DNA from: Gammaproteobacteria bacterium
GTDB lineage: Bacteria > Pseudomonadota > Gammaproteobacteria > Eutrophobiales > Eutrophobiaceae
DNA: 64,000 bases
Direction of reading: 5' to 3'
NCBI GenBank assembly: GCA_965243205.1
Contig: CBDEUK010000002.1
Coordinates: 288,001-352,000 of the forward strand
The position numbers were made by a program, and so were the translations under genes. Numbering within the stretch: the first letter of the stretch is position 1; each line of letters opens with the position of its first letter. This document shows, in pieces, positions 3,003 through 63,585 of the stretch. Below the pieces are notes generated by a model. That model was given only the letters and a program-made list of their open reading frames with translations. It searched no databases and was not told where the DNA came from.

Positions 3003-3076
3003 AGTTCAACTTTTAATGTTTTCCTTTGGTATGAGTATGAATCGTCATAATTTACCAAGCTTGAAAGGAAATTAGA

Positions 3077-4936: not shown

Positions 4937-4954
4937 ACTGAGATAATCATTAAA

Positions 4955-6819: not shown

Positions 6820-6835
6820 TGATAAAGAAATTTAT

Positions 6836-7198: not shown

Positions 7199-7239
7199 CA
7201 CTTTTATCTTGTAACCATCAAAATTAATAAAAAAATAAA

Positions 7240-9366: not shown

Positions 9367-9421
9367 CTTTACATAATTATTATTAGATATAAACAACACT
9401 CATTCGTGGGAATATAAGACT

Positions 9422-10924: not shown

Positions 10925-10939
10925 TAAGAGAAGCCAGAT

Positions 10940-47408: not shown

Positions 47409-47420
47409 AATACTTAAAAA

Positions 47421-48551: not shown

Positions 48552-48631
48552 AACAAGAAATCAGCTTGGTTAATGATAATAATTATCAATTAGTGTATCG
48601 TAATAAGATTAAAATATTTAAGAGGTCGTAA

Positions 48632-49219: not shown

Positions 49220-51003
49220 ATATTAAATACGTGAGCATTTTGTTTGTCAGTGGGTAGCTCAACCGTATTATTAAAGTCATTGAAGCCAATCTGTGGTTTG
49301 ATCTGTAGAATTTTTTTCAAGTTAACTAAGTTAGCAGGTCTAAAGAAATAGAAGCCTTGATAAGCATCGCAATCGTATCGTACTAATACTTGTAACTCTT
49401 CTGTGGTTTCTAGACCTTCAGCAATGACTTTGAGTTTTAATTTTTTTGCAATCTCACAAACTGATTTAATAATCGTAGCTTTAACATCATCTAGATGAAC
49501 ATCTTGAATGAACGCACGATCAAGTTTCACAATATCAATAGGTAATTTCATTAGATAACTTAAAGAAGAATAACCACTGCCAAAATCATCTAAGGCGATT
49601 TTAACACCTAATTTTTTGATATCATTAATTTTATCAATCGCAGTTTCTATATCGCCTACAAATATATTCTCAGTAATTTCTATCAATAAATGTTTAGGAT
49701 CAATTTTTTTACTGAGAATATTTTCTTTAAGGTGTGTTTCAAAATTGGTGTGCCAAAATTGATTGGGGCTTACATTTACTGATAAATATTGAATTCGATC
49801 ATCACAGATAACATTTTCTTGCTGCCATATAGACAATTGTTCGCAAGCTTTTTCAATTACATATTCGCCTAACTGTTGTAATAAACCTGTGCTTTCAGCG
49901 ATAGGAATGAATTCGGTAGGAGGGATATTACCTTTTGTTAAATGCTCCCATCTTAATAATGATTCAAAAGCAATAATGTTTCTATCTTTATTAACAATAG
50001 GTTGAAAATGCAAATCTAATTCTTTGTTGTTAAGTGCATAAATCAAATCTTTTTCTAAGTTTAACCAATGCTTATTTTTTTTGCGCATTTGTTCATCAAA
50101 ACTTTGAATATTATTTTGACCACTGCTTTTTGAATGTGTAAGTGCAATGTCAGCAAAATTTAATATTTTTTGTGCTTTGAAATCTTGTTCAGGTAATAAG
50201 CAAATACCTGAGCTAGAACTTATTTTAATCACCATCTCATCTATATTGTATGGTGCTCCAATAATATCTCTTATTTTAGTAGCAATTTTTTTTGCGTTTT
50301 TTAATGCGGCTTCTTTATCTTGATTAAGTCCAGAAATAATACAAACAAATTCATCGGCACTTATCCTGGCAAGATAATCTTCTTTGCGAACAACTTTTTT
50401 TAAACGATTAGCTACAAGCTCTAATAATTTGTCACCTGTTTCAAAACTGTATTGATTATTTATAAATTTGAAACGATCAATATTAACGATAATCAAGCAA
50501 CTGTAACTTTTATTACGTTTAGAATTAATAATATGTTTGTTTACTATTTCTTCTAAATTTTTACGATTTGGTATTTGAGTTAATGTATCGATTAGAGCTT
50601 GTTGAGAAAGCTCATTGATCGTATCTTGGTTATCCGTAATTGATTCTATACGACTATGAAAGGCAATAATATTTTCTGAATCATCAAACTCTGGCGTAAT
50701 TGTATCTTTGACTAATAATTCATCACCATTTTTTTGTTTTAGACGATATTCAATTTCAAGAAATTGTATTTGTTTCGAACTTAATTCCAACAATCTATCT
50801 TGAAATTCAATTAAATCATCAATACTGATTAAATCGATATAACTTTTATTTTCAGCAATTAATTCGTCACTAACATATCCTAATAATTCATTAATATTTG
50901 GCGACACAAAACTTATCGGTAATCCTGATTGATTTAATCTGGATACCAATAATATATTTCCGTTTTTAAAAAATCGGTCAGAAATCTCTTCAAGATTAGT
51001 CAA
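49216..51003 (-). CDS. PAS-GGDEF-EAL protein, probably a c-di-GMP phosphodiesterase
   Basis: Degenerate SADEF; ESLLRW, EITE, DDFGSGYSSL, AEG.E. Confidence 0.9.
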   Translation of the reverse strand: MTNLEEISDRFFKNGNILLVSRLNQSGLPISFVSPNINELLGYVSDELIAENKSYIDLISIDDLIEFQDRLLELSSKQIQFLEIEYRLKQKNGDELLVKDTITPEFDDSENIIAFHSRIESITDNQDTINELSQQALIDTLTQIPNRKNLEEIVNKHIINSKRNKSYSCLIIVNIDRFKFINNQYSFETGDKLLELVANRLKKVVRKEDYLARISADEFVCIISGLNQDKEAALKNAKKIATKIRDIIGAPYNIDEMVIKISSSSGICLLPEQDFKAQKILNFADIALTHSKSSGQNNIQSFDEQMRKKNKHWLNLEKDLIYALNNKELDLHFQPIVNKDRNIIAFESLLRWEHLTKGNIPPTEFIPIAESTGLLQQLGEYVIEKACEQLSIWQQENVICDDRIQYLSVNVSPNQFWHTNFETHLKENILSKKIDPKHLLIEITENIFVGDIETAIDKINDIKKLGVKIALDDFGSGYSSLSYLMKLPIDIVKLDRAFIQDVHLDDVKATIIKSVCEIAKKLKLKVIAEGLETTEELQVLVRYDCDAYQGFYFFRPANLVNLKKILQIKPQIGFNDFNNTVELPTDKQNAHVFNI

Positions 51004-51096
51004 TTTGTAGCTCAGAAGTTATTACTAAAAATATTTTTTCTCTAAAGTTTATCGGCAAAAAATCTCAATAATTAAGCTAATAATGCCATATTATTA

Positions 51097-51124
51097 TTAT
51101 CGCATAATGTATATTATGTTAAAT
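51097..51124 (+). other. dif: Chromosomal dif site (XerCD) = prophage attL
   Basis: TTATCGCATAA-TGTATA-TTATGTTAAAT; spacer and XerD arm identical to the E. coli dif. Confidence 0.95.
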
Positions 51125-51235
51125 TAATTATGTCATTGATTTTTATGTACTACTTATGGGTAATTGTAAAAACAACCCCTTTTCCGTCTAATTGTTTAGT
51201 ACGCCTGCGATAATTACAAAAAGAAGGAATTACTA

Positions 51236-51604
51236 ATGACCAGCATTATTGAGGACGCGGCATGGTACGCAGACGACAAATATTTTTATTGGGATAGCAA
51301 TTATAACCTTGAAACCATCCCCGAATTGGTGGCAAAACACCCCAAAACGATAAAACGATGGCATGAAAACAACGCTTGGCCTCTCTGGGCGAAGCGATTG
51401 ATTGCATCATACAGTGGTTATTATTTGCACCCCGGCTGGCATGGATGGCGGCTCAATCCAAGAGATTTCAAACTGTACCCGCCCGGGTTACGACATGGGT
51501 TCACAGCGCCAGAAATTGAAGGACTGGATTTTATCCGGCAAAACTTGGGGAATATTCGGCACTCTGAAATGAAGCCGAAGCAATACGAATTATTGTTTAC
51601 TTAG
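51236..51604 (+). CDS. HTH + DUF3653 protein (XafT-like Xer activation factor candidate)
   Basis: HTH-like TIPELVAKHPKTIKRW; WHGWRL...LYPPG...FTAPEI DUF3653-like motif; next to att; RBS AAGGA. Confidence 0.65.
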   Translation: MTSIIEDAAWYADDKYFYWDSNYNLETIPELVAKHPKTIKRWHENNAWPLWAKRLIASYSGYYLHPGWHGWRLNPRDFKLYPPGLRHGFTAPEIEGLDFIRQNLGNIRHSEMKPKQYELLFT

Positions 51605-52001
51605 GTTTAGTATTTACAACGTCGTTCTTTTTTATATGTAGATAAACTCTGTCACCAAACAAAAAGAAAAACGCGCTAGAGCCTATATTTAAAGTACTTT
51701 GAGCGTGTGGTGAGTTCATAACAACAAGTACAAACGCCATCAGTAAAATTAAAAATGTGGCGATGTAACGAGACGACTCGCGTAAATCAGTGACCCATTG
51801 CGATGCCTTGCCCGACGGTTTGTCGATGTCGGCTAAGGCTTTTAATCGCTCGGTTTCCGCATTCATTAACTGAATCGTTTCTTCAACGTTTTGCGGACGA
51901 CCACCGGCTGAGCCTGTGACCTTAGCAACTACACCTCTTATAGTATCGACAACAGCAGGAACTAAACTTGGTAAAACAGTTGTTGCTAATATTTCAATCA
52001 T
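51597..52001 (-). CDS. Holin-like protein (3TM/GTA holin-like)
   Basis: WVTDLRESSRYIATF then TM segments, FFFLFGDR, basic C-terminus. Confidence 0.65.
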   Translation of the reverse strand: MIEILATTVLPSLVPAVVDTIRGVVAKVTGSAGGRPQNVEETIQLMNAETERLKALADIDKPSGKASQWVTDLRESSRYIATFLILLMAFVLVVMNSPHAQSTLNIGSSAFFFLFGDRVYLHIKKNDVVNTKPK

Positions 52002-52194
52002 GATTTGAGCCTGTATTTATAGGGTTTTCTTGCGTTAGTTCACTTTCTAAATTAATCACACGTTTGGTTAACTTACTGACTTTATCTGCTACGTCATTGA
52101 TGCGTTGTTCATTGCGATAGATAAGATAAATAATCAACGCCGATGAAAAGTCACCACCAGCCGATAACAGTTTCAATAATTCATCTAAGGGCAT
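51994..52194 (-). CDS. Small TM + coiled-coil protein (holin-like)
   Basis: SALIIYLIY hydrophobic stretch then heptads; overlaps both neighbours. Confidence 0.55.
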   Translation of the reverse strand: MPLDELLKLLSAGGDFSSALIIYLIYRNEQRINDVADKVSKLTKRVINLESELTQENPINTGSNHD

Positions 52195-52535
52195 GTTGTA
52201 CAGCGAACCGAACCATCAAGACCGAACAACGGGTCATCAGGACAACGACAGCCTCGGTCAATCACAATTTCAAAGCTACCCGGCGCACCGCCGCCATCTT
52301 TACCGCCAACACTCGCAATGCCAAAATCTTTAAAAAAATCATCGAATACACTGCCACTAGTAAAACCATCACCATCAGCCCCGACGAACGTACTACTTGC
52401 ATCACTCGGTGAAACACTGCCGAAAGATCCCAAATTTAGCCCAGATAAGGACTTCCCGGACTTCCACCACCACAACAGGCCGCCAATCACGATGCCTGAC
52501 AAGATCATTTTTTTCGTATTAGAATCGTTTTTCAT
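52185..52535 (-). CDS. Phage membrane protein with Cys-rich C-terminus
   Basis: TM MILSGIVIGGLLWWW; GCRCP...CTTCP; ATGA coupling to upstream gene. Confidence 0.65.
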   Translation of the reverse strand: MKNDSNTKKMILSGIVIGGLLWWWKSGKSLSGLNLGSFGSVSPSDASSTFVGADGDGFTSGSVFDDFFKDFGIASVGGKDGGGAPGSFEIVIDRGCRCPDDPLFGLDGSVRCTTCP

Positions 52536-53251
52536 GCCCTACCCGCTACTTGGTCTATAAAACCCCAATCAATGGCCGCATAAAACTGACCGCCGCCCGG
52601 TTGATTACGTCCCATCCAGTTCGCAACACGACCGCCCTTTCGTGGCCGTCCATCAATGTGCATACCGGGGCGCGGTTTCCAGTCGGGATACACACCGATA
52701 CCACCAATCGCCGACACTTCAACGGCTGCGTTGTACGCTTCGCGCAAACTACTCTCAGGAAATATATCAATCGCATCGGACAAACGACCGACCGCATAAT
52801 GACGTGAATTTTTCGAACCGGTTAATCGAAACAATGCACCGGGCGCGGGTGAAATTCGAATCGGTTTACCTAAGCGATGCCGCATATCATCCAACGCATG
52901 AATGATGCGCGGGTCAATGTGTTTTAGATTTTCATTACCGCCAAATTCAGCCGGCGTGAAATATCGAATCTTGTCCCAATCAACGGATTGAGTTTGGTCA
53001 ACGATGGGGAATTCATTTACAGTTTCCAATTCAGCCTCCCGATTGCCTGCGGTATTCGATACAGTGGGAAAAGTAAAAACGGTGTCACTGTCGAACGAAC
53101 CAAGTTTGAAAAAATCCAAAAAATCATCGTCCAGAAATCCACCATCAAGAAGACCATCCGCGAGTGGATTAGATTTGCCTTGAGCCTGTCGAGCATAAAG
53201 AACACCTCCGACAATCGTCGCGGCCGCTAAAAGTTTACCCGCCCGACTCAT
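52532..53251 (-). CDS. Membrane-anchored peptidase M15 (muralytic/endolysin)
   Basis: N-terminal TM; YFTPAEF, LDDMR..LGKPIRIS, SRH-x6-DAIDI, GIGVY, MHIDGR. Confidence 0.8.
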   Translation of the reverse strand: MSRAGKLLAAATIVGGVLYARQAQGKSNPLADGLLDGGFLDDDFLDFFKLGSFDSDTVFTFPTVSNTAGNREAELETVNEFPIVDQTQSVDWDKIRYFTPAEFGGNENLKHIDPRIIHALDDMRHRLGKPIRISPAPGALFRLTGSKNSRHYAVGRLSDAIDIFPESSLREAYNAAVEVSAIGGIGVYPDWKPRPGMHIDGRPRKGGRVANWMGRNQPGGGQFYAAIDWGFIDQVAGRA

Positions 53252-53600
53252 TGTTCAATGATGCTATGTAATCGTTTAACTGCTGATGAAATTGAGCCTC
53301 GGTAATTTCTTTGTTACCGAGTTTTTTATTCAAGTCATCCGATTTAATCCGTATCTTTTCAGCATTCGCCAGTCGCAACGTTTCTTGTTCTTGCTTCTGT
53401 TGAGCTGTCATAAAAATTAAATCATCGTCGGTCACGTTATCGTTTAAGAACGTGCAACAGGTTTTAAAATCGGCTAATACATCGTTCATTGCCTGCTCAA
53501 AATTCTTTCCACCTGTCGCTAGCATTTGCAGATAAACCAAACCTTGAAGCTTGCGCGCACGCGACGATGTATTACTCGGATTAGTTCCAAACTGTTTCAT
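53235..53600 (-). CDS. Phage hypothetical protein
   Basis: ATG at 53600 with GAGG RBS just after the upstream stop; helical/coiled-coil. Confidence 0.65.
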   Translation of the reverse strand: MKQFGTNPSNTSSRARKLQGLVYLQMLATGGKNFEQAMNDVLADFKTCCTFLNDNVTDDDLIFMTAQQKQEQETLRLANAEKIRIKSDDLNKKLGNKEITEAQFHQQLNDYIASLNNESGG

Positions 53601-53602
53601 GA

Positions 53603-54277
53603 TTAAAGTACCTCGTAGATGAGTGAATAACGTCCCCAACTGGTATTCGTTTGGTTGTAATAAATCCCGTTTCCTGCAGGAACAATGAACATCGGCTCCT
53701 TGTGGTCATGACGACCGGCCGAGACCATCAACAACGTGCAGGCATTACCATCATCGAATCCCGCTGGCGTGGTGGCTTTGTACATAATTCGCATTAATGG
53801 CGAAATGGAGACCATATCGATAGAGTAAACTTTTATACCGTTGACATTCGTAGCTGGCGGCACGATGGTAAACATGCTGGTATTGTTGAGTGCGTTATGC
53901 GCCGAAAGGGTATTCGATAAATCAATATCGCTGCTAATTTTCAGTGGAAAATCTTCGTTCTGTTCCATTAACACCGCATCATCTCTAATGCGTGACTCGC
54001 CATTCACAGACCAAAACTCAATGGTTAATGTTTTACCTGGCTGCGCTTCATTGGCTAGCCATAGCTTGGTGGTCGGCCACTTCTCAAACCGACGACCGTT
54101 AAAAATATCAACCGGCACATTTTCAGTTGAATTAAATCGTAACGTTGCCTTAGCACCGGGCGATGATGAACGGATTCGTAACTCGTTACACTGAACGTTT
54201 AATTCAAACAGTGAACGCGCAACCGATAAATCAATATCGATTTTACGAATCGGTAATAAGTCGAATTTATTACTCAT
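53603..54277 (-). CDS. Putative vertex/spike protein B
   Basis: Beta-rich; paralogous to 54277-54999; TAATG coupling; position matches the PM2 spike region. Confidence 0.6.
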   Translation of the reverse strand: MSNKFDLLPIRKIDIDLSVARSLFELNVQCNELRIRSSSPGAKATLRFNSTENVPVDIFNGRRFEKWPTTKLWLANEAQPGKTLTIEFWSVNGESRIRDDAVLMEQNEDFPLKISSDIDLSNTLSAHNALNNTSMFTIVPPATNVNGIKVYSIDMVSISPLMRIMYKATTPAGFDDGNACTLLMVSAGRHDHKEPMFIVPAGNGIYYNQTNTSWGRYSLIYEVL

Positions 54278-54999
54278 TAGAGCACCTCATATTCCAACGC
54301 CACCCACGAGTTGGCATTGGCATTTTGTTGAACGTAAATACCCAAACCGGCAGGAATAATAATCACCCTTTCTAAATTTCCTGTTGTTCCACCCACGACC
54401 ATCATCAACGTGTGCGCCGCTGTATCGGTGTACGAACTCGGAGCAGAACTTTTCGCCATAAATCGCATCGATGCACTACTGGCCGCACTGGCTAACAAGA
54501 CCTTAATGCCATTCACATTTGTTGCTGGTGGCACGATGGTTTGTAAGTTGTTGTTAACAAGTTCGAAAAAATATTGACTCACCATCGTCGGCGGTGTTGG
54601 TGGGTCAGTAATACCTTGAATTTGCGGGTCTACGGGAAACTCTATATTTACAGGGTCAGCGTCATCGATTTTCACTAAGCCAACAATCTGAGCGACCAAC
54701 GCATCGTCTTCGATTTGCGTATCACCGACAGCCGTCCAGTATTCAATCGTTAATTCCGCGCCTGCTTGAGCATCGTTATCAATAAAAATTTTTCTAGTGG
54801 GCCAATTGGTAAACCGTCGCCCGTTAAAAATATCAATCGGTTTGTTTTGTGTTTGATTGAATCGAATTTTCGCTAAGGCATTCGCGCTGTTGGACGACAC
54901 ACGTATTTGATTACAGCTAAAAGTCAGCTCTTCTAAATTACGAGCGACTGATAAATCGAGTGATATTTTACGAACGGGCAACCCGTCAAAGTTGCTCAT
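54277..54999 (-). CDS. Putative vertex/spike protein A
   Basis: Beta-rich N-domain, Pro-rich linker (DPPTPPT), beta C-domain. Confidence 0.6.
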   Translation of the reverse strand: MSNFDGLPVRKISLDLSVARNLEELTFSCNQIRVSSNSANALAKIRFNQTQNKPIDIFNGRRFTNWPTRKIFIDNDAQAGAELTIEYWTAVGDTQIEDDALVAQIVGLVKIDDADPVNIEFPVDPQIQGITDPPTPPTMVSQYFFELVNNNLQTIVPPATNVNGIKVLLASAASSASMRFMAKSSAPSSYTDTAAHTLMMVVGGTTGNLERVIIIPAGLGIYVQQNANANSWVALEYEVL

Positions 55000-55454
55000 T
55001 TCTTACGGCCCTTTTTACGGTTAAACCAAAAGTACGCCATCGCACCGAGACCCAGTTGAACTTCGGGCTTTGATAAATTATCAGCGAGTTTTCGGAACGT
55101 CTCTTGACCTGACTCAACGATTTCACCGACCGTTGTTGTGAGTGCAGCAGTAGCCCCACTCGTTCGAGCAAAGTCCTGTGATACCTGTTCAAGTGCATCG
55201 CCGGCCGGCTCTAGAATTTGTTGTATATCCTCGCCCTGTAACCCTTGATTGGTAATTTCAAACGTTAAATCCGAATCGGGTGAGCCTGAGACTTTAATCG
55301 CGGTCGCGCTCGGTTTGTCGGCAACGACTGACCCTTCCGAGGTGTCATTAATCGTTCGTGTGTTCGTGGTGCTGTTACTGGACGACGAGGATTTCGAACC
55401 GCCACCGCGATACCCTGCAAACGGTAATAGTTTATTTTGAATTCGAGTAATCAT
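54996..55454 (-). CDS. Phage membrane-associated structural protein
   Basis: GGGSKSSSSSNSTT N-terminus; C-terminal TM plus RKKGRKK. Confidence 0.65.
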   Translation of the reverse strand: MITRIQNKLLPFAGYRGGGSKSSSSSNSTTNTRTINDTSEGSVVADKPSATAIKVSGSPDSDLTFEITNQGLQGEDIQQILEPAGDALEQVSQDFARTSGATAALTTTVGEIVESGQETFRKLADNLSKPEVQLGLGAMAYFWFNRKKGRKK

Positions 55455-55891
55455 CGTTTATCTATCTGTTTAAGCATCACCAATTCACCCGGGACAAATC
55501 CATTTTCCAAATAGGTTTTAATCAGGCCCGGTCGCTTCACATGAGCGCGAACTCTGCTACACCCTTTTATCTGCCCGATTTCTTCAAGCAACGGTAAAAA
55601 CTCCATCATGAAACGCAACTCGCCAAAGTTACCGCCTACGGCGACAACAACACATTCCAGTCCGTCATATCTCAGTACGCAGCAACCGAAATCCGTCTCG
55701 CCATCCGTTGCGTGGTATAACTCACAATGACCGTTCATGACATCTCGCGCGCAATCTTCAATGCCGTAAATTTCATCCCACTCAACCGGCTCACACCATT
55801 GTCGAGCGGTGTAATTCCATTGGGTTTTTACGAGCTTGAGCGCCTTTTTTTCAGTAGTGTTTTCGCTATCATGTACCCGCCTATCAGCCAT
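55451..55891 (-). CDS. GNAT-fold-like phage protein
   Basis: VVVAVGG, GCSRVRAHVKRPGLIKTYLENGF resembles a GNAT C-terminal motif. Confidence 0.5.
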   Translation of the reverse strand: MADRRVHDSENTTEKKALKLVKTQWNYTARQWCEPVEWDEIYGIEDCARDVMNGHCELYHATDGETDFGCCVLRYDGLECVVVAVGGNFGELRFMMEFLPLLEEIGQIKGCSRVRAHVKRPGLIKTYLENGFVPGELVMLKQIDKR

Positions 55892-56094
55892 AGTGCCTGC
55901 TCCGTAAATCGTTCTTTAAATGGCTCTCTTGTAGCCCCAATCGTCACATTGACCGAGGACGTATTCCCTTCAGATAACGCGGTCGATGGCGCAGCATCAC
56001 CGCCCAAAATACCTTCGAATGGACTTTTTCCATCGCCAACAAACGGCACGCCCGAGCCACCTGACACCCCGGACAACGCACTAAAAAAACCCAT
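55828..56094 (-). CDS. Small phage membrane protein
   Basis: G/S-rich, C-terminal ALWLIGGYMIA plus KKRR; TAATG coupling. Confidence 0.65.
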   Translation of the reverse strand: MGFFSALSGVSGGSGVPFVGDGKSPFEGILGGDAAPSTALSEGNTSSVNVTIGATREPFKERFTEQALWLIGGYMIAKTLLKKRRSSS

Positions 56095-56252
56095 TAATCA
56101 AATACCTCGTTCACCAACATGCCGGCCGCAAAACCGACAGCGGCTAATAAATACGGCTGGTCAGTAACGGCGGCTTTGGCTTTTTCAACCGTTCCGCGTG
56201 ACTGAAAACCGGTGTAAAGACTGGCTGCGCCGACAATTAGTAACAGCGGCAT
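56094..56252 (-). CDS. 52-aa membrane protein (not in ORF track)
   Basis: MPLLLIVGAASLYTGF...YLLAAVGFAAGMLVNEVFD; TGATG and TAATG overlaps at both ends. Confidence 0.75.
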   Translation of the reverse strand: MPLLLIVGAASLYTGFQSRGTVEKAKAAVTDQPYLLAAVGFAAGMLVNEVFD

Positions 56253-56530
56253 CAATCGTCATCCATCACCATCAAAAACAAGAACGCGACCGCTCCATAG
56301 AGCAATGCATCGTTGTTTGAATTGGTGGTTTGTTGTGGGGCTGACTGAGTGACAAAAACCGTTTCCGGCCCCGGTGCGTGCAACGTGTCAAACGGTTGCG
56401 GCGCGCCGAGTTTTTCACGGATTTTAAACCCTAAGCCCTCGGTTACTGCTGGCTTGATACCTTCCAGTACATCACCAAACCAGCCCGAGACTCCCGGGCC
56501 AGTTGGTACGAATGAATCGAACGCGTTCAT
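56252..56530 (-). CDS. PM2 P3-like membrane protein
   Basis: Directly after the capsid gene; C-terminal TM ALLYGAVAFLFLMVM; GAGG RBS. Confidence 0.65.
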   Translation of the reverse strand: MNAFDSFVPTGPGVSGWFGDVLEGIKPAVTEGLGFKIREKLGAPQPFDTLHAPGPETVFVTQSAPQQTTNSNNDALLYGAVAFLFLMVMDDD

Positions 56531-56566
56531 AACATTACCTCGCTAATTAACGTATTTTGGTAATGA

Positions 56567-57544
56567 TTAAATACGGTCTGAAGAACCGCCGATAATCTCT
56601 TGTACGATAATCTCCGCTTGGTGATTCGCGCCGCCGTTCACATCCATGAACAGGTCGTATGCTGCGACCTCGGATAACTCGTGACCATGACCCGGCATCG
56701 AGCGCGGTGCTAAATCGATGAAGTACACACCCGTCCGAGGCGTTGCGATTTCATGGTTCATTGAATAACGAGCCTGATTCATTGCGCCCGTTTCCTTGAA
56801 TCGGACTTCTGAATCGGTCTCAACAATCAAGCTGTTGATGATGTCGTTCGCACGAACACCGTTGTCACGAGCAATGACCATTGCCGACATCACCATGCGA
56901 TTTTCGCCTGACAATAAGTCGACTTTTAATCGGTCATTGGTGTTGTTGATGTTGACTAAAATGGTACGTTCACGATGCAACGCGTAGTTGTTTTGTAAAC
57001 TGTTATTACGCACTAAGTCATGACTCATGACTTCAATGGTCGGCTCGACAGTCCAACTTAAAACAGTTGTTCCCGCTGGCGTTACTAAGTCGCTCGCATC
57101 GCCCCAATCCACGTTTAGAGTAAAACTGGTTACTCCGCCCTCGCGTGTCGCATCAAGCAATGTTGCATCTTGAGCGGCTCCGGCTTCAGGCATCCACAAC
57201 GGGATAGAGAAATACGCCTCAAATGGACGGTCACCTGTCGCAGTTCCCGGCGCGACGTTGTACGGCACAACACGGCCGCGACGAATATTTAATTCTTTGA
57301 GCGCCTTACCCGATAACGTTTTGACTGGTACGTTACCGTTGACCATGATTTCTAAATTTTTAATCAAGCTGAACGGCGCGTCTTCCAATACTGCGGTTGC
57401 CGCCGCCGTACCGATATTTAACGTACCTGATAATCGACAGTGAATTTCACGATACACGCGACCTTCATGCAGATTGATAAAACCCTGTGCATTTTGAGCG
57501 TAATTCAAAATGTCTTGAGAACGACGATAAGCAGTAATACCCAT
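56567..57544 (-). CDS. Double jelly-roll major capsid protein (PM2 P2-like)
   Basis: INLHEGRVYREIHCRLSG, LIKNLEIMVNG, YFIDL, QAEIIV align with PM2 P2 segments as recalled; all-beta; follows the ATPase. Confidence 0.8.
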   Translation of the reverse strand: MGITAYRRSQDILNYAQNAQGFINLHEGRVYREIHCRLSGTLNIGTAAATAVLEDAPFSLIKNLEIMVNGNVPVKTLSGKALKELNIRRGRVVPYNVAPGTATGDRPFEAYFSIPLWMPEAGAAQDATLLDATREGGVTSFTLNVDWGDASDLVTPAGTTVLSWTVEPTIEVMSHDLVRNNSLQNNYALHRERTILVNINNTNDRLKVDLLSGENRMVMSAMVIARDNGVRANDIINSLIVETDSEVRFKETGAMNQARYSMNHEIATPRTGVYFIDLAPRSMPGHGHELSEVAAYDLFMDVNGGANHQAEIIVQEIIGGSSDRI

Positions 57545-57569
57545 GATAAACCCTCTAAAAGTTAATAAT

Positions 57570-57593
57570 AAAAAACCGGGTAGGAACCCGGTT
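57570..57593 (-). terminator. Terminator-like hairpin just upstream of the capsid RBS
   Basis: Minus strand AACCGGG-TTCCTA-CCCGGTT-TTTTATT. Confidence 0.55.
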
Positions 57594-57599
57594 CATTCA

Positions 57600-57719
57600 C
57601 TAGCCGTTAACAATGCGGCGCAGTGGTGGCACTCGATTGATGATTGCTAATGTGATGGCAGTCATTACAACGCCGTTAACGATTTGATTAGCAGTCGGCA
57701 ATTTCACACTTGTAGCCAT
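57600..57719 (-). CDS. 39-aa membrane protein, PM2 P7-like by position (not in ORF track)
   Basis: MATSVKLPTANQIVNGVVMTAITLAIINRVPPLRRIVNG; GGGAG RBS. Confidence 0.75.
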   Translation of the reverse strand: MATSVKLPTANQIVNGVVMTAITLAIINRVPPLRRIVNG

Positions 57720-57815
57720 GAGTCGGTCTCCCGTTCGTTAAAAAAAATTACACGGCAATCATGGTCGTTACATAACCTCATTCAAGTGCTATTACGTATA
57801 CGTAAAAAGAAATTT

Positions 57816-58454
57816 TTACGGGCCTTTTAATTCGGCTTTTTGCATGCCATCGCCAAAGAAAAAGTACTGGTACGGCTGTAGTTCAACCAACTCTTTTGCC
57901 GTAACACCGGGCAAGGTTTTCGCGATGCGATTGGCATCCTCTTCGTACGTAAGACCGAATGACGTTATGTGCGATGCGTTCGATAAAAAGGTTTTATCAA
58001 CACCCGTCGGACGCTGTGATGTCCCCATGATAATCAAGCCATGTTGACGGCCAGTTGATACTAACTTTTCCCATTCAGGAATGGCGTAACCCGGCTCACT
58101 TACCATCTGAATTTCTTCAACGACACACATCAATGGGCCGCCATGTTTAGCGACTTCGTACGCGGTATCGCAAAAGACACCGAATTGCATTAAACGATGT
58201 TTTTGGCTGGCTTGGTTCGGGCGAAAGGCTTTACTGAACGGCTTGTCATACACGCTCGTTAAGTGACTGACCAATTTATCGCAACTGTCCGTCGAATCTA
58301 AATCGAACTCATGTTTGAAATCCCACACCATCAACCGAGTCGGCTTTAGTTCAGCGATGTCGTTTAATAGTTTGGTGGTTTTACCCATGCCGGTGCGACC
58401 GAAGTACGCCCGGACATTGGCTTTATGGATGTTATTATTTACGTTTACTTGCAT
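57816..58454 (-). CDS. FtsK-HerA/A32-like genome packaging ATPase (PM2 P9-like)
   Basis: Walker A GRTGMGKT, Walker B CVVEE, GRQHG, SQRPTGVDK; ATG 58454 with GGAG RBS preferred over 58562. Confidence 0.88.
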   Translation of the reverse strand: MQVNVNNNIHKANVRAYFGRTGMGKTTKLLNDIAELKPTRLMVWDFKHEFDLDSTDSCDKLVSHLTSVYDKPFSKAFRPNQASQKHRLMQFGVFCDTAYEVAKHGGPLMCVVEEIQMVSEPGYAIPEWEKLVSTGRQHGLIIMGTSQRPTGVDKTFLSNASHITSFGLTYEEDANRIAKTLPGVTAKELVELQPYQYFFFGDGMQKAELKGP

Positions 58455-59091
58455 GTGTACTTTTCTCCGCTTCCGCCCATGATGGTGCGTTAATCTCCGC
58501 CTCTTTGAATGCGGCTGGTTTTTCAGATTGTTGACTGGAATTGCTCTCGACTGGCTGACCATCTTCAGGCCATAGCACGGTTACTGTTGCTAGTAACAGT
58601 GGCCCAAAAAATAACGCGGCCGACATTTCATCGGATACTTTGCTGAGTGATTGAGCACTGTTACCGAATAAGGCTTTGAAATACGGCTTTTCCATGATGG
58701 GCGCTAATTTACTCGCACCCTCTTGGATGATGTCCGGCGTATAGATAGCCGCCATTTGTGGGTACTGCATCGACAGCGCAGCCACGACCGTTTCTATCAA
58801 TACCTTTGCGGCTTTACGGTTTTCTTCGAGTGCATCCTCTGGCGTGATGACCGTACCTTCAAGACCCGGTACACCACCGCCCTCTTGATTCGATTCAACC
58901 TGTGCCGCTCTCGCTTTTAAGTTTGCGAACGGGTCAGCGGTTCCACCATGTCCCGGTTCGGTCGAGCTCTGACTCGTCGTTTGGTTCTGGCTCTGGTTCT
59001 GGGTCTGACTCTGGCTCTGTTGGCTCGACCGGGTCGAGGTTTTCTTCTTCGATTTCTTCTTCGTGACTTTCGTCTGGGTCTGGTTTTCCAT
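58435..59091 (-). CDS. Phage protein with low-complexity N-terminus and a TM near the C-terminus
   Basis: 218-aa ORF filling the gap before the ATPase; TM AALFFGPLLLATVTVLW; start uncertain. Confidence 0.65.
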   Translation of the reverse strand: MENQTQTKVTKKKSKKKTSTRSSQQSQSQTQNQSQNQTTSQSSTEPGHGGTADPFANLKARAAQVESNQEGGGVPGLEGTVITPEDALEENRKAAKVLIETVVAALSMQYPQMAAIYTPDIIQEGASKLAPIMEKPYFKALFGNSAQSLSKVSDEMSAALFFGPLLLATVTVLWPEDGQPVESNSSQQSEKPAAFKEAEINAPSWAEAEKSTHASKRK

Positions 59092-59275
59092 CGTCTATAG
59101 GTCTCATACGTTGTCGGATTAATTGGTCGGATTTATTGGAACGGGCGAAGTGCTGAGAGCCACACGCGCCGCATGTATACGTGGCCCACTTACGTTTTGA
59201 CGATTGCTTTACGATGCATTCCGCGCCACAGTTAGGGCAATCGATTCGCCCGATGACATTCGTCGGCTCAGTCAT
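58934..59275 (-). CDS. Zinc-ribbon protein, putative late transcription activator
   Basis: CPNCG...CGACG; GAGG RBS; acidic tail; position like PM2 P14. Confidence 0.65.
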   Translation of the reverse strand: MTEPTNVIGRIDCPNCGAECIVKQSSKRKWATYTCGACGSQHFARSNKSDQLIRQRMRPIDDGKPDPDESHEEEIEEENLDPVEPTEPESDPEPEPEPNDESELDRTGTWWNR

Positions 59276-59426
59276 TTTTAAGCACCTCTCTGAGTAGTAT
59301 TACCAGCTCCAACATCAACGGAATCGCACGTTGTTGAGCAAACAACATGCGGGAACCTACCGATTCATTGGCTTTGGTTAATTCGGCTTGAATAGCCTGT
59401 AATTGTTGGTCGATATCAGGGTTCAA
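59268..59426 (-). CDS. 52-aa helical protein (not in ORF track)
   Basis: GGAGG RBS, TTG start overlapping the Rep stop; [21 protein letters not shown]...LLREVLKND. Confidence 0.65.
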
Positions 59427-61027
59427 AGTGTTACCTCCGGCGGGGGTTGTGATAATTCGTGAAAATTTACGGGGGTAGCGGGTAATTCCCGCGTACAGTT
59501 ATTGACAGGACTCCAAGGGGCGTTTTGTTTTGAATCTCGTACAACACGCCACTCATGGAGTCTGGTTAAGATCACGTCAATGTTATCGGTCACGCCGTAA
59601 ACGATGTCACCTATCGGCTCACCATAACGACCCGGTTCGTCCGACCATGATTTACATACGTGAATTTTCAGATTTTTACGTTGTGTAACAGGGCCACCTT
59701 GTGCACGTACGTAATCAGCCCAGTTACCCACATCAGCGGCATAGCGTACGCGTTCAATCGATTCGGAATCGACTTCGTTACGTAAACGACGAAGTTCACG
59801 CCACACCCCAACAGGTGGGCCGCCGATTTGCTGGAACTGTCGTATACCCCACGCACTCGCCCACGCTCGGACGAGTGCAGCGGCTTTTATGTCAGCATCT
59901 TCGAGGCCTTCCCCGTCGATGTTCTTTGAAATGTACTTTGCAATGTAGGCGGTCGCCGACCCTTTGGACGGGTCGATTTCCTCAATTTTTAATCGGTGCT
60001 CTTTGGCCCCGGGTTCGTTTGGGGTGTCCTTAATGGCATGATGGAATAGAACGTCTTGAACGTCGGCACGTTGTTCATTAGGCATGAATAGCAACATATG
60101 CCAGTGGGGGCAGCCATCGTGATGCGGCTCAGCGATTCTAAATCCGAAAACTGGTAAGCCTTGACGATGTAACTTTGCTCGGACTCGCGACCACACACCG
60201 CACAGATATTGCTGTGAGTCTCGTGGTGTTGCGCCGTTGTAGTTCGGGTTTTCATTTCCTGTTTTCGATAGCCTTGCATGAAACCGTGACGGACACGTTA
60301 ACGTATAAAAATCGGCAACGTATCCCATGTCATTCGCTATTGTTTCAAACCCAGATAATCGACACATCAATTCGTTACGTCTTAGTGCCGGGTTCGATAC
60401 TGATAGCTCCTGCAACTCTGACAACGTGTATTCCTGACCGCTGTCATTGATTGCTATCATAGACTCTAAAAACGCTTTATTCCTTTGTATCGCTAATTGA
60501 ACTCGCTCAACTGTGCCATGACTCACATACTTGCTAGCCTTACAATGCACCATGCCGTTATCAATCGCGGCCGACTCTTGCCGTCTGGTTAAATCTTTTC
60601 GTAACTTACGTGTCCACCAATCAATGCATCGAAGCCGCGCCAATCTCGCATCCATTGGCAGGGTATCGCGAGGCGGTTGAATACCTGAACGCAACGCCAC
60701 CTGTTCACAGCTGCTAATATCATTACCGTACAACTTCACGCGCCCCACTCTATCGACAGCGAACGCACGCACGTCATCGTCCTTTGAATCAAGCCCTAAA
60801 CGGTCGCTTGCATAATTCGTTTCAATGTCTAAGAGGTAATGATTCGCTTTTTGTGACGAGACACTTTCATGTATTTTTTTATACGTTCCAGCGATAACAT
60901 CGCGTAAATCATCGGCTAATTTTGTGAAGATACGTCGACGAAATAACTTGTTGTCACGACCGACCCTATCATCTGGAAAACCCGCAAATATTAGCGGGTC
61001 ATCGATTAACAGCTCGGCTCTAGCCAT
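59423..61027 (-). CDS. P2 gpA-like rolling-circle replication endonuclease (HUH)
   Basis: [34 protein letters not shown] (two Tyr), [24 protein letters not shown]. Confidence 0.95.
59495..59522 (-). other. Putative rolling-circle nick origin inside rep
   Basis: CGCCCCTTG^GAGTCCTGTCAATAACTGT resembles the P2 ori (CTCG^GAGTCCTGTCAA) as recalled. Confidence 0.65.
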
Positions 61028-61176
61028 ACGACTTCATCGCCTTCAACTTCGGTAATTTCCAATTCATCGGCATTCACATCACAAAGAAAATGCTCAACGA
61101 TTAACGGTGAATCGAGCCGCTCAGGACACAAGTCAATGACTCGGTCGAGGGCCGACCTAAACTCACGCAACGTCAT
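61006..61176 (-). CDS. 56-aa acidic hypothetical protein (not in ORF track)
   Basis: [21 protein letters not shown]...WLEPSC; GAGG upstream; overlaps both neighbours. Confidence 0.55.
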
Positions 61177-61357
61177 CCATCACCTCGAACACCTCGTCCA
61201 CTCGCTCAACTGTCATGCGATGGTAGTTACCTTGGATACCGAATAAAGTGGGTTGAAATACGACTATGGAAATGGGTTTGATATGGTCTCGGATACCGAC
61301 AATCATCGCCGTCATTAACGGCTCTGTTCGGCCCTTCAATCGTGTGCCTACGTGCAT
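61163..61357 (-). CDS. Phage hypothetical protein, first gene of the leftward operon
   Basis: GAGGA RBS; 64 aa. Confidence 0.6.
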   Translation of the reverse strand: MHVGTRLKGRTEPLMTAMIVGIRDHIKPISIVVFQPTLFGIQGNYHRMTVERVDEVFEVMDDVA

Positions 61358-61443
61358 CGAAATTTCCTCATATTGATTAATTTTTTATCGGAACTCGAAA
61401 CAAGGAGGAGGCCCGAGAGCTAATCGGGCCAAAAATTTCGATG

Positions 61444-61507
61444 TTCCAGCAATACCAGATAAGCGGAGATTTTGGGGAATCAGCACAACATCTAGTGGTT
61501 GCTGGAA
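61444..61507 (-). ncRNA. Putative antisense leader hairpin targeting the repressor RBS
   Basis: TTCCAGCAA/TTGCTGGAA-closed hairpin with a CCCCAA loop; contains TTGTGCTGATTCCCC, complementary to 61602-61616. Confidence 0.55.
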
Positions 61508-61511
61508 AAAC

Positions 61512-61540
61512 AGAATAGCTAAGTCACGCTTAACTAGCAA
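61512..61540 (-). promoter_or_regulatory. Leftward (lytic) sigma70 promoter
   Basis: TTGCTA-N17-TATTCT; overlapped by the palindrome CAAGTC-T-GACTTG (61538-61550). Confidence 0.6.
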
Positions 61541-61615
61541 GTCTGACTTGAACTTCAATTGCTTACAAACATCAATTACACTTGACTATAACAACAATTA
61601 AGGGGAATCAGCACA

Positions 61616-61993
61616 ATGAACACAATTGAAACATTGGACGCCATAAGTCGTTGTAATAACAACTGTACTGACTACAGAATTGCAAAAATGATGGGTGTTT
61701 CCACCTCTAGGGTCTCTAACTGGCGAAATGGCAAGAATTCTATGGATGATGAAGCCCGAATCGCCGCCGCAAAGTTACTAAACCAAGACCCAGAAACACA
61801 ACTAGTTTATGGACAGATGGAACGGACAAAATGTCCAGAGGTGAAGTCCGCATGGATGAATTTAATCGAACGTTCAAAGGTCGCCGGTTTCATTCTAGCC
61901 CTATTTTTAACCTTTGGAATGACATTCACTAATTTTGAAGGTGCAACGGTTGCAGCAGCAGAAAGCGCGAACGGTGTATATTATGTTAAATAA
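61616..61993 (+). CDS. HTH repressor (DUF3693/inovirus-type) with TM tail, ending inside attR
   Basis: TDYRIAKMMGVSTSRVSNWRNG HTH; ER..CPEVKSAW; TM VAGFILALFLTFGMTF; divergent from rep. Confidence 0.85.
   Translation: MNTIETLDAISRCNNNCTDYRIAKMMGVSTSRVSNWRNGKNSMDDEARIAAAKLLNQDPETQLVYGQMERTKCPEVKSAWMNLIERSKVAGFILALFLTFGMTFTNFEGATVAAAESANGVYYVK
61964..61991 (+). other. attR: dif-like site with a degenerate XerC arm
   Basis: AGCGCGAACGG-TGTATA-TTATGTTAAAT. Confidence 0.9.
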
Positions 61994-62040
61994 CGTTATT
62001 ATATTCTCATCTATTAATGCTTTTAACGTATCTATTTATT

Positions 62041-63384
62041 TTATATGAGGTATTTTTTACGCTTACGCCAGAGCGTTGTTCTACTCATTCCTAAAATTTC
62101 GGCTGCTAATTCCAGATTTCCATCTGAATCCAACAAAGCTTGTTGGATCTTTTTCTTTTCTGTTTTTAAGCCTGAGTATGTATTTAATGATTGTTCGGCG
62201 TGTCCAGTATTAAGAAATTCAGGTGGCAAGCACTGTAAATTCATAACATCTGATTGACTTACTGCATTGGCATATTCAACAACATTACGTAATTCACGTA
62301 TGTTTCCTGGCCACGGATAATTGAGTAATACACGCATTGCTTCCGGTGCAATATCGTTAATTTTTGCCTCTCCTCTTAGTTTCAGGTCACTTATAAAGTG
62401 ATGAAGTAATAAAGAAATATCCATTGTTCTTTCTCGAAGTGGCGGTATAAATAATGGGACGACACGTAAACGATACATTAAATCTTCACGAAATTTACCT
62501 TCCTTAACACGCTTACGTAATGATTGATGAGTTGCAGCAAGTATTCGTATATCTACTTTTTTTACAGTTTCACCTCCAACAGGAATCAATTCTCGTTCTT
62601 GAATAACACGTAATAATTTAGCTTGCAGATCCATTGGTATTTCAGCGACTTCATCTAGGAACAATGTGCCTCCATCGGCCCTTTCAATAATCCCTGTGTG
62701 ATTACGTATTGCATCAGTAAATGCGCCTTTAACATGACCGAATAACTCACTTTCTAATACTGAGGAGCTAAGCGAGGCACAATTAATTGCCATAAACGGT
62801 TTACCTGAACGTAAACTTTCTGCATGCAGAGCTTTAGCGACTAATTCTTTGCCGGTTCCTGATTCTCCACGTATCAATACACTTACATCAGTTTTTGCAA
62901 TATTAGATATCAGTTTAAAGCTCTCTTGCATCGTTGCATCGACTGAGAGTAATCCATGAAAGGTTTTTTGTCCGGCCAGATTCTTTTCTACTTTTTGCTC
63001 AATTTCAGAGTTATCTGGAATAAGAACTTCTAAGCCTCCATCAAATTCACCATGAGTATTTCGATAAGCAATGGCATATTTTCTAACAGGAACAATATGC
63101 CCATCAGAATGATATAGTTTGATTGCATAACCATTGATTTGACCGTGTTGATCGATACCACAACCTGCGACGCATTGCTGGCATCGATTACCTGCCAGAC
63201 AGCTTTGCCCTATTAGGTCAGATGATTTATAACCCAATACTTTTTCAGCGCCTTCACTCCAGTATGTGATATGGCGATTTTTATCTACTGAGAACACGGC
63301 CGCAGTAGGAAAAAGCATCGCAAGTTGTTCTAAAGCTGTTTTATCCAATGATTTACTCTTTCTATTTGTTTCATTATGTTTCAA
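62041..63384 (-). CDS. PAS-domain sigma54-dependent activator (start uncertain)
   Basis: GESGTGKE, ESELFGH.KGAFTDA, LFLDEV, WPGNIREL, Fis HTH; Cys cluster in the PAS domain. Confidence 0.95.
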   Translation of the reverse strand: MKHNETNRKSKSLDKTALEQLAMLFPTAAVFSVDKNRHITYWSEGAEKVLGYKSSDLIGQSCLAGNRCQQCVAGCGIDQHGQINGYAIKLYHSDGHIVPVRKYAIAYRNTHGEFDGGLEVLIPDNSEIEQKVEKNLAGQKTFHGLLSVDATMQESFKLISNIAKTDVSVLIRGESGTGKELVAKALHAESLRSGKPFMAINCASLSSSVLESELFGHVKGAFTDAIRNHTGIIERADGGTLFLDEVAEIPMDLQAKLLRVIQERELIPVGGETVKKVDIRILAATHQSLRKRVKEGKFREDLMYRLRVVPLFIPPLRERTMDISLLLHHFISDLKLRGEAKINDIAPEAMRVLLNYPWPGNIRELRNVVEYANAVSQSDVMNLQCLPPEFLNTGHAEQSLNTYSGLKTEKKKIQQALLDSDGNLELAAEILGMSRTTLWRKRKKYLI

Positions 63385-63441
63385 TTAAAAATAATTGAAA
63401 CATAATGAAACAAATATTGAAACAAATATTGAAACAAATAA
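63363..63441. repeat. 25-bp perfect inverted repeat plus three 12-bp tandem repeats (TGAAACA array)
   Basis: TATTTGTTTCATTATGTTTCAATTA-AAAA-TAATTGAAACATAATGAAACAAATA; TGAAACAAATAT/A x3 at 63406-63441. Confidence 0.9.
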
Positions 63442-63507
63442 TAATAATATATTTTAAGGTGTTTTATAACCTCATGTTTTTATTAAAAATTTTATTAAAT
63501 AAATAGT

Positions 63508-63523
63508 TGGTATTTGAAATGCT
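63508..63523 (+). promoter_or_regulatory. Sigma54 -24/-12 promoter
   Basis: TGGTATTTGAAATGCT (GG-N10-GC), divergent from the sigma54 activator. Confidence 0.65.
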
Positions 63524-63585
63524 ATAGGTTTAGGAAAATTATGACTAAAACCATAAAAAGCCTGATTATTTTTGGAGTGAGATAA

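Follow-up and report, generated by a model that had tools for sequence, protein, structure and literature searches.

Introduction

Tailless phages with double jelly-roll (DJR) capsids and a PM2-like genome organization (Vinavirales) include PM2 and Cr39582 of Pseudoalteromonas (Corticoviridae) as well as prophages of Vibrio that are integrated at the chromosomal dif site (PMC11630473), among them NO16 (described in PMC9966536). Ma & Zhang (2025) defined the class of dif-type DJR prophages, to which 160 of 258 Vibrio DJR prophages belong (PMC12715192). As characterized in these reports (proposed Asemoviridae; PMC12715192, PMC9966536), such elements of ca. 10-11 kb sit at dif, have no integrase, and combine a PM2-like late operon with p16/rstR-like and p15/xafT-like genes as fixed termini and a 17- or 28-bp dif-like attP that can be full, left-armed, or right-armed. 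PM2 itself has a 17-bp attP, and the p16/rstR-attP-p15/xafT module is common to CTX-I inoviruses (PMC12715192); in 2007, Krupovic and Bamford had raised a role of XerCD merely as a possibility. Here we describe an island at positions 51108-61991 of a 64,000-nucleotide stretch of a gammaproteobacterial genome of the Eutrophobiaceae (in the following "the window"; contig CBDEUK010000002.1 of assembly GCA_965243205.1, positions 288,001 to 352,000), which we consider with a probability of roughly 80% to be the prophage of a tailless DJR virus of PM2-like organization (Vinavirales) that belongs to the dif-type DJR prophages and thus to the integrative mobile elements exploiting Xer recombination (IMEX). 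Comparisons of its predicted proteins suggest that the late module (capsid and vertex) comes from an uncultured capsid lineage other than that of PM2, while the early and lysogeny genes appear PM2-like or inovirus-like.

Three further lines of published work bear on this island. XafT, a protein composed of a helix-turn-helix (HTH) and a DUF3653 domain, is described to activate XerD without FtsK through its DUF3653 domain and not the HTH, and DUF3653 genes cluster beside dif (PMC6744903). The same protein is described to stabilize synapses between imperfect sites, and a degenerate arm limits the FtsK-driven excision of TLC-type elements (PMC9226527). In phiRSS0, attP lies within the 3' end of the repressor gene ORF13, the product of which is shortened from 156 to 130 amino acids upon integration (Yamada, PMC3816273). 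Finally, Yutin et al. (2022) described clades of Vinavirales that are known only as prophages of Beta- and Gammaproteobacteria, and assigned to this order an extended core of h, P7, P14-P16, an endolysin, and a GNAT protein (PMC9502842).

The island is inserted at the chromosomal dif site

The island is delimited by two copies of the 17-mer TGTATATTATGTTAAAT at 51108-51124 and 61975-61991, with a start-to-start distance of 10,867 bp. A regular-expression search of the 2,793,537-bp genome, forward and reverse, found no further copy, in agreement with a first-pass annotation of the window that had proposed a 10,867-bp unit between 17-bp repeats; this search and inspection of the sequence confirm the pair, which is not among the best 20 of at least 60 repeat families listed. 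The left 17-mer belongs to a complete dif, TTATCGCATAA-TGTATA-TTATGTTAAAT, and makes up its central region and XerD arm, while the right copy is directly preceded by AGCGCGAACGG, which agrees with the XerC arm of the host in 3 of 11 bases. The two junctions are as follows:

51097-51124, plus strand: attL, a complete 28-bp dif with its XerC arm at 51097-51107, central region at 51108-51113, and XerD arm at 51114-51124
61964-61991, plus strand: attR, a degenerate, phage-derived XerC arm at 61964-61974 followed by the central region and XerD arm at 61975-61991

This dif lies at ca. 339.1 kb of the contig, 2 kb from the maximum of its cumulative GC skew at 337 kb, and the genes on either side are ordinary chromosomal ones, i.e., a gene for a PAS-GGDEF-EAL protein and, across the island, one for a sigma-54 activator. 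When the region was compared to 40 related genomes (query 47000-64000), dif was present in 17 of them and the left flank matched widely; the island itself was matched in none of the 40, except for one low-complexity stretch of 44 bp in a single genome. In the sole other species of the genus, dif is found without a prophage at a distance of 1.4 kb from the orthologous PAS-GGDEF-EAL gene, which supports the notion of an empty site only in part, as synteny does not extend to the right flank. The six central bases are the same in attP and dif, and the 17-bp attP, composed of central region and XerD arm, is of the same type as the PM2 site: in reverse complement, 16 of its 17 bases agree with the PM2 attP as given in PMC12715192. 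The island is inserted at the true chromosomal dif site, as is typical of IMEX.

Searches of the island proteins against the Pfam, PHROG, and NCBIfam families revealed no recombinase, and a six-frame search of the genome with XerC and XerD models found tyrosine recombinases only outside the island, with XerD at 404 bits and XerC at 364.5 bits (both above cut-offs). As in other IMEX, the element has no recombinase of its own and resides in a host that encodes both XerC and XerD; the annotation as a dif-integrated, integrase-less element therefore holds. The same family searches also agree with the reported lack of integrase, terminase, portal, tail, and Zot genes. Two PHROG labels are misleading in this context: a "terminase large subunit" family that holds PM2 P9 and a "tail assembly protein" label attached to the family matched by the 122-amino-acid gene at the left end of the island.

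The terminus region of this genus is plastic. In the sister species, a HipB/HipA toxin-antitoxin pair occupies the XerD-arm side of dif, and four small ORFs (open reading frames) of unknown function lie between dif and the PAS-GGDEF-EAL gene. The sigma-54 activator gene on the right flank (62041-63384) has at least five diverged paralogs elsewhere in the genome (65-73% DNA identity).

Gene order and early genes compared with PM2

Divergently from a repressor gene on the plus strand, a 9.7-kb string of ORFs that overlap or abut one another runs leftward on the minus strand from 61357 down to 51597; as previously annotated, these frames are intact and tightly coupled. The first part of this string comprises the early genes, the packaging ATPase, and a tiny hydrophobic protein, listed here in the direction of transcription:

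61006-61357, minus strand: two small early ORFs of 56 and 64 amino acids at the position of PM2 d/e, without family match
59423-61027, minus strand: Rep, a rolling-circle replication initiator of 534 amino acids (P2 gpA / PM2 P12 family; Pfam Phage_GPA 1.8e-88)
59268-59426, minus strand: ORF of 52 amino acids, placed like PM2 P13
58934-59275, minus strand: zinc-ribbon protein of 113 amino acids with an acidic tail, a PM2 P14-like candidate late-gene activator (zinc-ribbon families 2.6e-5)
58435-59091, minus strand: ORF of 218 amino acids that overlaps both neighbors, placed like PM2 gp h
57816-58562, minus strand: candidate packaging ATPase of the FtsK/HerA type, homolog of PM2 P9 (BLASTP to P9; Walker A motif GRTGMGKT)
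57600-57719, minus strand: hydrophobic protein of 39 amino acids, placed like PM2 P7

The PM2 record reads d/e, P12, P13, P14, h, P9, P7, P2, P3/P4/P8, j/P1, and P5/P6/k/l. On the island, small ORFs are followed by Rep, another small ORF, the zinc ribbon, the overlapping 218-amino-acid ORF, the ATPase, and the 39-amino-acid ORF; the late part then continues with the capsid gene, three small hydrophobic ORFs, two unknowns, a pair of candidate vertex genes, one more unknown, a peptidase, and again three small hydrophobic ORFs. Taking position and similarity of the predicted proteins together, the order is collinear with PM2, gene for gene.

Three of these proteins are related to PM2 by sequence as well. 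Rep shows 37% identity to PM2 P12 over 446 amino acids (E 2e-89) and matches 382 phage records, best those of P2-like phages at ca. 44% identity. The zinc-ribbon protein aligns with PM2 P14 (BLASTP E 3e-4) such that the cysteine pairs correspond, while the 218-amino-acid ORF has no similarity to PM2 gp h (BLASTP E 7.6). The ATPase, the true start of which is likely ca. 36 codons further in, matches PM2 P9 (BLASTP E 2e-16), phrog_2666 (7e-22), HerA chains in the PDB, and HerA in NCBIfam. Out of 50,697 phage records, it matches only 16, i.e., 11 NO16-like phages, four PM2/Cr39582 entries, and Lysinibacillus phiG2; the identity to the NO16 ATPase is 27%. A P9-type ATPase and a P12-type Rep arranged in PM2 order are traits that the island shares with the Corticoviridae. 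The Zot/pI-type assembly ATPase and filament coat genes of Inoviridae, in contrast, were not found in the family searches, and the only ATPase is the one of P9/HerA type. The earlier proposal of a PM2-like virion gene order is thus borne out, with Rep, zinc ribbon, and ATPase as homologous proteins.

A predicted double jelly-roll capsid protein

The first gene of the late part encodes the candidate major capsid protein, and two tandem genes further downstream encode candidate vertex proteins:

56567-57544, minus strand: major capsid protein of 325 amino acids, double jelly roll according to AlphaFold 2 modelling and structural alignment
53603-54999, minus strand: tandem paralogs of 224 and 240 amino acids, candidate vertex (penton/spike) proteins at the position of PM2 P1 and NO16 gp14/gp13

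An AlphaFold 2 model of the 325-amino-acid protein that was built from an alignment with 10 homologs reached a mean pLDDT (predicted local distance difference test) of 76.5 and a pTM (predicted template modelling score) of 0.80. Foldseek searches of the PDB with this model retrieved PRD1 P3 (3.5e-15), the capsid protein of Sulfolobus turreted icosahedral virus (STIV; 7.7e-15), and PM2 P2 (4.9e-10), and Tectivirus and STIV capsids ranked top in BFVD. In structural alignments with VIA-align, the model superimposes on STIV with Z 25.3 (rmsd 3.0, 288 residues aligned), on PRD1 P3 with Z 23.4, and on PM2 P2 with Z 17.6 (244 residues aligned), the latter with 20% identity as the highest of these alignments. 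Judged by this model, the protein is a double jelly-roll capsid protein, as the first-pass annotation had suggested for comparison against PM2 P2 by AlphaFold, and its fold is nearer to STIV and PRD1 than to PM2 P2 by Z.

The two vertex candidates are 44% identical to each other (E 2e-62). NO16 gp14 and gp13, the position of which they share, are described as penton base and spike (PMC13552765). For the 240-amino-acid protein, which has one outside homolog, the AlphaFold 2 model is poor overall (pLDDT 46), and residues 135-240 form a jelly roll with the STIV turret protein 4ind as top match (Z 10.1, rmsd 2.9, 96 residues aligned) and other turret or penton proteins at Z 6.6-8.5. Since jelly rolls are common, this match supports the vertex reading weakly.

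These structural results bear on the most basic alternative, namely that the island is no virus at all but a plasmid-like or defense-island IMEX with an incidental jelly-roll protein. Such an element could explain why most of the island ORFs have no family match; we nevertheless regard it as highly improbable, given that the capsid model aligns over its full length to DJR capsids (Z 23-25), that 15 of the 16 phage matches of the ATPase are packaging ATPases of PM2 and NO16, and that the whole gene order is collinear with PM2.

The capsid lineage itself is common in metagenomes and rare in collections. A search of 5.8 billion clusters returned 10 homologs at 44-61% identity, and HMMER over 1.84 billion representatives (clusters at 50% identity, from metagenomes) found 582 proteins, mostly of 310-350 amino acids, at E<=1e-3, including 220 at <=1e-10 and nine at <=1e-30. 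Six of 11 close family members match Pfam P2_C; among 50 wider relatives, picked from the top 73 of 150 listed for having one near-full-length stretch, 23 match P2_C and eight match P2_N. In contrast, the capsid has no match at E<=0.01 among the 50,697 phage records, its profile has none at E<=10 among PDB sequences, and no relative was found in the 125 other genomes of the host family or in 399 sampled genomes of the host class (one further genome was left unscored). P2_N and DUF3653 are likewise absent from the 126 host-family genomes, though the P2_N blank is weak in that this model matched nowhere.

Pattern scans for capsid relatives yielded 63 stretches in IMG/VR and 319 in JGI metagenomes, none of which was confirmed, while 81 stretches in species genomes led to one confirmed case, an 11.7-kb contig filed under an Omnitrophota metagenome-assembled genome (MAG); scans seeded with two distant single capsids found no relatives. 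Capsid (30% identity) and ATPase (27%) are common to this contig and the island, and so is the N-terminal domain of the vertex candidates, the first ca. 100 amino acids of which match two post-capsid proteins of the contig; Rep is not shared. Two other contigs that encode close capsid homologs measure 11,492 and 10,503 bp and may be whole circles. On the Omnitrophota contig, a good dif-like site at 2676-2703 (minus strand) lies between cellular-looking genes (1-2491; GNAT, BamE-like, lipoprotein, and tRNA-binding proteins) and the phage late module (2755-11744). This arrangement may reflect a related prophage joined to the dif of a distant host, mis-binning of the contig, or a free genome that carries cargo genes.

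The lysogeny module

The two ends of the island are occupied by plus-strand genes, i.e., the repressor gene at the right, separated from the leftward operon by a control region, and the 122-amino-acid end gene at the left:

61616-61993, plus strand: repressor, 125 amino acids in the prophage, HTH and hydrophobic DUF3693-type segment, P16/RstR/phiRSS0-ORF13 family (phrog_638 5e-19)
61358-61615: divergent control region with a 20-nucleotide direct repeat at 61469-61488 and 61597-61616 (18 of 20 identical)
51236-51604, plus strand: end gene of 122 amino acids, divergent P15/XafT-like protein (HTH and DUF3653-type), candidate XerD activator

The last codons of the repressor gene are the attR 17-mer, and in an excised circle its frame would reach 154 amino acids, adding a second hydrophobic segment. 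The protein is related to PM2 P16 (BLASTP 6e-6) and NO16 gp6 (3e-7), and it matches 62 phage records (28 from Vibrio, 21 Burkholderia P2-like phages, 11 of the Ralstonia RSS type, and two of Villovirus). By sequence similarity, its closest phage relatives are filamentous phages: matches to the inovirus regulators of Vipa4291, K04M1, and RSS20 (ORF13) have E-values from 4e-16 to 2e-11 at 30-31% identity over 82-109 amino acids. The Pfam DUF3693 model gives E 0.035 for the repressor itself and 3.7e-20 and 2.5e-20 for its homologs of K04M1 and Vipa4291, respectively. Similar to phiRSS0 ORF13, the repressor combines an HTH with a DUF3693-type segment and has attP inside the 3' end of its gene. Dif-like attP sites inside the 3' part of the regulator gene, at ca. 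codons 120-130, are also found in RSS20 (501-511) and K04M1 (667-694), and in the prophage-derived record of vB_Vipa4291 the regulator homolog ends exactly at the end of the record. From these comparisons, an attP embedded in the regulator gene looks like a conserved trait of this regulator family across hosts. Integration would shorten the repressor from 154 to 125 amino acids on the island, much like the 156 to 130 described for phiRSS0. The inovirus-like nature that had been attributed to the lysogeny module is supported by these relatives of the repressor; nothing else of the island is inoviral, whereas the Ralstonia and Vibrio inoviruses are filamentous single-stranded DNA phages with Zot-type assembly.

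In the control region, the second copy of the 20-nucleotide repeat spans the ribosome-binding site and start codon of the repressor gene. There are also inverted repeats at 61355-61365/61433-61443 and 61435-61452/61499-61516. We infer that the direct and inverted repeats are candidate operators.

For the 122-amino-acid end gene, the relationship to DUF3653 proteins proposed in the first-pass annotation stands by transitive homology and fails with the Pfam model directly. The protein aligns collinearly with NO16 gp7 (BLASTP E 5e-5) and PM2 gp a (P15; E 8e-4), which in turn match Pfam DUF3653 at 2.2e-15 and 2.5e-4, respectively. It further matches a bona fide DUF3653 protein of another genome (BLASTP E 0.007) and phrog_1668 (4e-6), and the DUF3653 set accounts for 19 of the 30 Atlas clusters nearest to it (top score 0.92), with one cluster named VC1465/XafT. 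A word search found no homolog, and a tblastn search of phages gave no match. Like TLCphi XafT (VC1465), the end gene would thus encode an HTH and DUF3653-type protein beside the dif-like attP of an integrase-less element. The similarity is remote, however, with the NCBIfam VC1465 model missing the 122-amino-acid ORF and giving the repressor HTH just 18 bits, and the TLC attP has a degenerate XerD arm instead of the degenerate XerC arm found here. As in the dif-type DJR prophages, the p16-like and p15-like genes are both terminal and on the plus strand, with weak collinear matches to their counterparts.

Proposed life cycle and weight of the evidence

Based on this gene content, the free form of the element would be a circle of ca. 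10.87 kb in which a single rightward operon comprises the repressor gene, the 17-bp attP with its poor XerC arm, and the P15-like gene. For integration, host XerD would be activated by the DUF3653-type protein independently of FtsK and start recombination between attP and dif, to be completed by XerC or by replication. This order of strand exchange is a guess because the known XafT work concerns degenerate XerD arms, while attP here has a poor XerC arm. Integration would restore a complete dif at attL, and dimer resolution would therefore be kept; at the same time, it would cut the repressor frame as in phiRSS0 ORF13. In the lysogen, the repressor would keep the divergent leftward operon off. 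Upon induction, Rep would replicate the circle and the zinc-ribbon protein would switch on the late genes; the ATPase would then package DNA into a membrane-lined DJR capsid before the M15 peptidase and small membrane proteins lyse the cell.

A quite unlikely variant of this scheme retains the prophage but has it enter by another Xer route, e.g., through a single exchange that XerC or XerD catalyzes and replication resolves, similar to CTX-type IMEX and possibly with rolling-circle single-stranded DNA as intermediate, with the 122-amino-acid protein acting as a transcription regulator only. An attP with a single good arm would fit such a route, as would a Rep of a rolling-circle nickase family, the blindness of the Pfam DUF3653 model to the 122-amino-acid ORF, and the description of PM2 P15 as a transcriptional regulator (PMC12715192). 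A full exchange, though, is what the six identical central bases of attP and dif suit, and the 122-amino-acid ORF aligns through the DUF3653 domain, i.e., the part reported to activate XerD. Moreover, no inverted dif-like half-site turned up in a search limited to scans for the XerD arm.

Several findings weigh against our interpretation of the island as a dif-type DJR prophage of PM2-like organization. The XerC arm of attP is very poor, the membrane, holin, and vertex roles are assigned by position, and the homologies of the two end genes and the zinc ribbon are weak (pairwise E 1e-3 to 1e-7). Pfam DUF3653 (PF12375) finds nothing in the whole genome at E<=10, including the 122-amino-acid ORF. 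The capsid protein itself has no Pfam family match, and its profile is marginal against PM2 P2 (hhalign E 0.092 with 11 sequences; E 0.0026 at a probability of 12% with 50 sequences). With 0.43-0.51, the GC content of the island is ca. 10 points over that of its host (flanks 0.28-0.38, genome 0.37), an unusual difference for a resident phage; it is small only at the end that holds the P15-like gene, where the GC content nears the host value. This composition suggests a recent arrival from a higher-GC host. Finally, neither an excised circle nor an empty site was found, with the contig sets of two carrier runs showing the integrated form only and no joints, though this absence is weak evidence because contigs drop rare forms.

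The last two points are also what would be expected of a cryptic prophage of the same identity that entered by Xer recombination and no longer excises or forms particles, e.g., after a recent jump from a higher-GC host. Two further observations fit this scenario: none of the 125 other host-family genomes has a relative of the element, and its attR has a degenerate XerC arm of the kind that in TLC-type elements limits FtsK-driven excision (PMC9226527). But the 20-odd frames of the island are without exception open and coupled in translation, its two att sites are intact, and the capsid, Rep, and ATPase have the same lengths as their relatives, while contigs cannot reveal rare circles. We therefore see an immobilized prophage as an unlikely outcome.

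The element is present in four run entries, all from one study and one sample and with no RNA run among them, while two runs with the same species label gave no match even on the flanks at 90% likeness. The genome has a word depth of 6.7x and 13.2x (48000-64000) in runs of 1.0-1.5 billion letters; such low depth suggests a mixed sample rather than a pure culture as the source.

Relationship to described phages and novelty

Dif-type DJR prophages with the p16-attP-p15 module have already been published for Vibrio and PM2 between 2023 and 2025, and the island is no new kind of system. The label of a corticovirus/inovirus mosaic that it had received is apt as far as the module shared with inoviruses is concerned; this is, however, a trait of the whole published class including PM2 and not peculiar to this element. 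Nor is its control logic novel, as had been claimed, with the module described in PMC12715192 and an attP in the 3' end of a repressor gene in PMC3816273.

Within this class, the island resembles the Vibrio elements including NO16 in its size, its integrase-less insertion at dif, its dif-like attP, its PM2-like late operon, and its homologous ATPase and end genes. It differs from NO16 in a capsid protein of 325 instead of 265 amino acids without detectable sequence similarity (hhalign E 0.32), and from NO16 and the Vibrio set in a Rep of the PM2 P12/P2 gpA type and a long DUF3693-type repressor the gene of which holds attP in its 3' end. Its host also stands apart from those of the Vibrio set, with a genome of 2.8 Mb, 36.7% GC, and a single dif, in a family without another such capsid. 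With PM2 and Cr39582, it shares the gene order, the homologous Rep, ATPase, zinc ribbon, P16, and P15, and the attP of XerD arm and central region. In contrast to PM2, it has a capsid protein that is 56 residues longer, two paralogous vertex candidates of ca. 230 amino acids instead of the 335-amino-acid P1, a candidate M15 peptidase, and an attP inside the repressor gene, whereas that of PM2 lies downstream of P16. Vinavirales clades D and E (proposed Neaeraviridae and Amphitheaviridae; PMC9502842) are likewise PM2-like prophages with an extended core known only from genomes, and the lineage of the island may already be counted among the prophage-only clades of that study.

What is new is that the 325-amino-acid capsid lineage is now placed in a complete genome whose integration site is known, that one element joins an early region of PM2 type with a repressor/attP cassette of RSS0 type and a late module of non-PM2 type, and that the host belongs to a family otherwise without such a capsid (0/125). 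The element extends the integrase-less, dif-integrating tailless phages beyond Vibrio and Pseudoalteromonas to a small, low-GC proteobacterial genome and links a large capsid family known only from metagenomes to a complete genome. As a DJR phage that carries the embedded-attP repressor cassette known from inoviruses of Ralstonia and Vibrio, it is a concrete case for the notion, already published, of lysogeny modules moving between the two virus realms, and the combination of attP, one small protein, and host XerCD makes it a compact test bed for the recombination of an attP with only an XerD arm.

A bolder proposal, which we hold to be doubtful, would see the island as a live, inducible member of an uncultured, family-level Vinavirales capsid lineage that arose when its late module was combined with an early module of PM2 type and a lysogeny cassette of inovirus type, and that has a switch reading its own integration state. 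The switch would do so by way of attP recombination, which exchanges the 29 C-terminal residues of the repressor, where the second hydrophobic segment lies. If this were true, the element would be the first case in which such a lineage is known from a complete genome and at a defined chromosomal site of a host.

Further late genes

The remaining late part of the leftward operon contains the following features:

57573-57594, minus strand: hairpin with a 9-bp GC-rich stem followed by a T-run, between the 39-amino-acid ORF and the capsid gene
55828-56530, minus strand: three small ORFs of 88, 53, and 92 amino acids with hydrophobic C-termini, placed like PM2 P3/P4/P8
54996-55891, minus strand: ORFs of 152 and 146 amino acids between the membrane-protein and vertex genes, without family match
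53235-53639, minus strand: ORF of 134 amino acids without significant family
52532-53251, minus strand: candidate endolysin of 239 amino acids, Peptidase_M15_3-like by Atlas features, with an N-terminal hydrophobic anchor
51597-52535, minus strand: three small ORFs of 134, 66, and 116 amino acids with hydrophobic stretches, placed like PM2 k/l/P6, candidate holin or lysis accessory proteins

The gene order given in the first-pass annotation is confirmed for Rep, the zinc ribbon, the ATPase, the 39-amino-acid protein, and the capsid, while position and hydrophobic stretches are all that speaks for its "holins" and "membrane proteins". Its M15 peptidase gets a weak score with Pfam (E 0.031, below cut-off) and no PDB sequence match; the assignment is supported by its nearest Atlas clusters (100% Peptidase_M15_3, score 0.92) next to a PHROG endolysin match (0.0039). 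In Vinavirales, a GNAT protein is described at the position following the membrane proteins (Yutin 2022, PMC9502842), and the 146-amino-acid ORF was considered for this role and rejected since no family match supports it. The 134-amino-acid ORF of the last three genes matches phrog_28107 (1.8e-16) and has one strong hydrophobic window. Terminator-like sites total 11 on the island and are not above the 12.8 of shuffled sequences; the hairpin at 57573-57594 may be an attenuator or stabilizer within the late operon.

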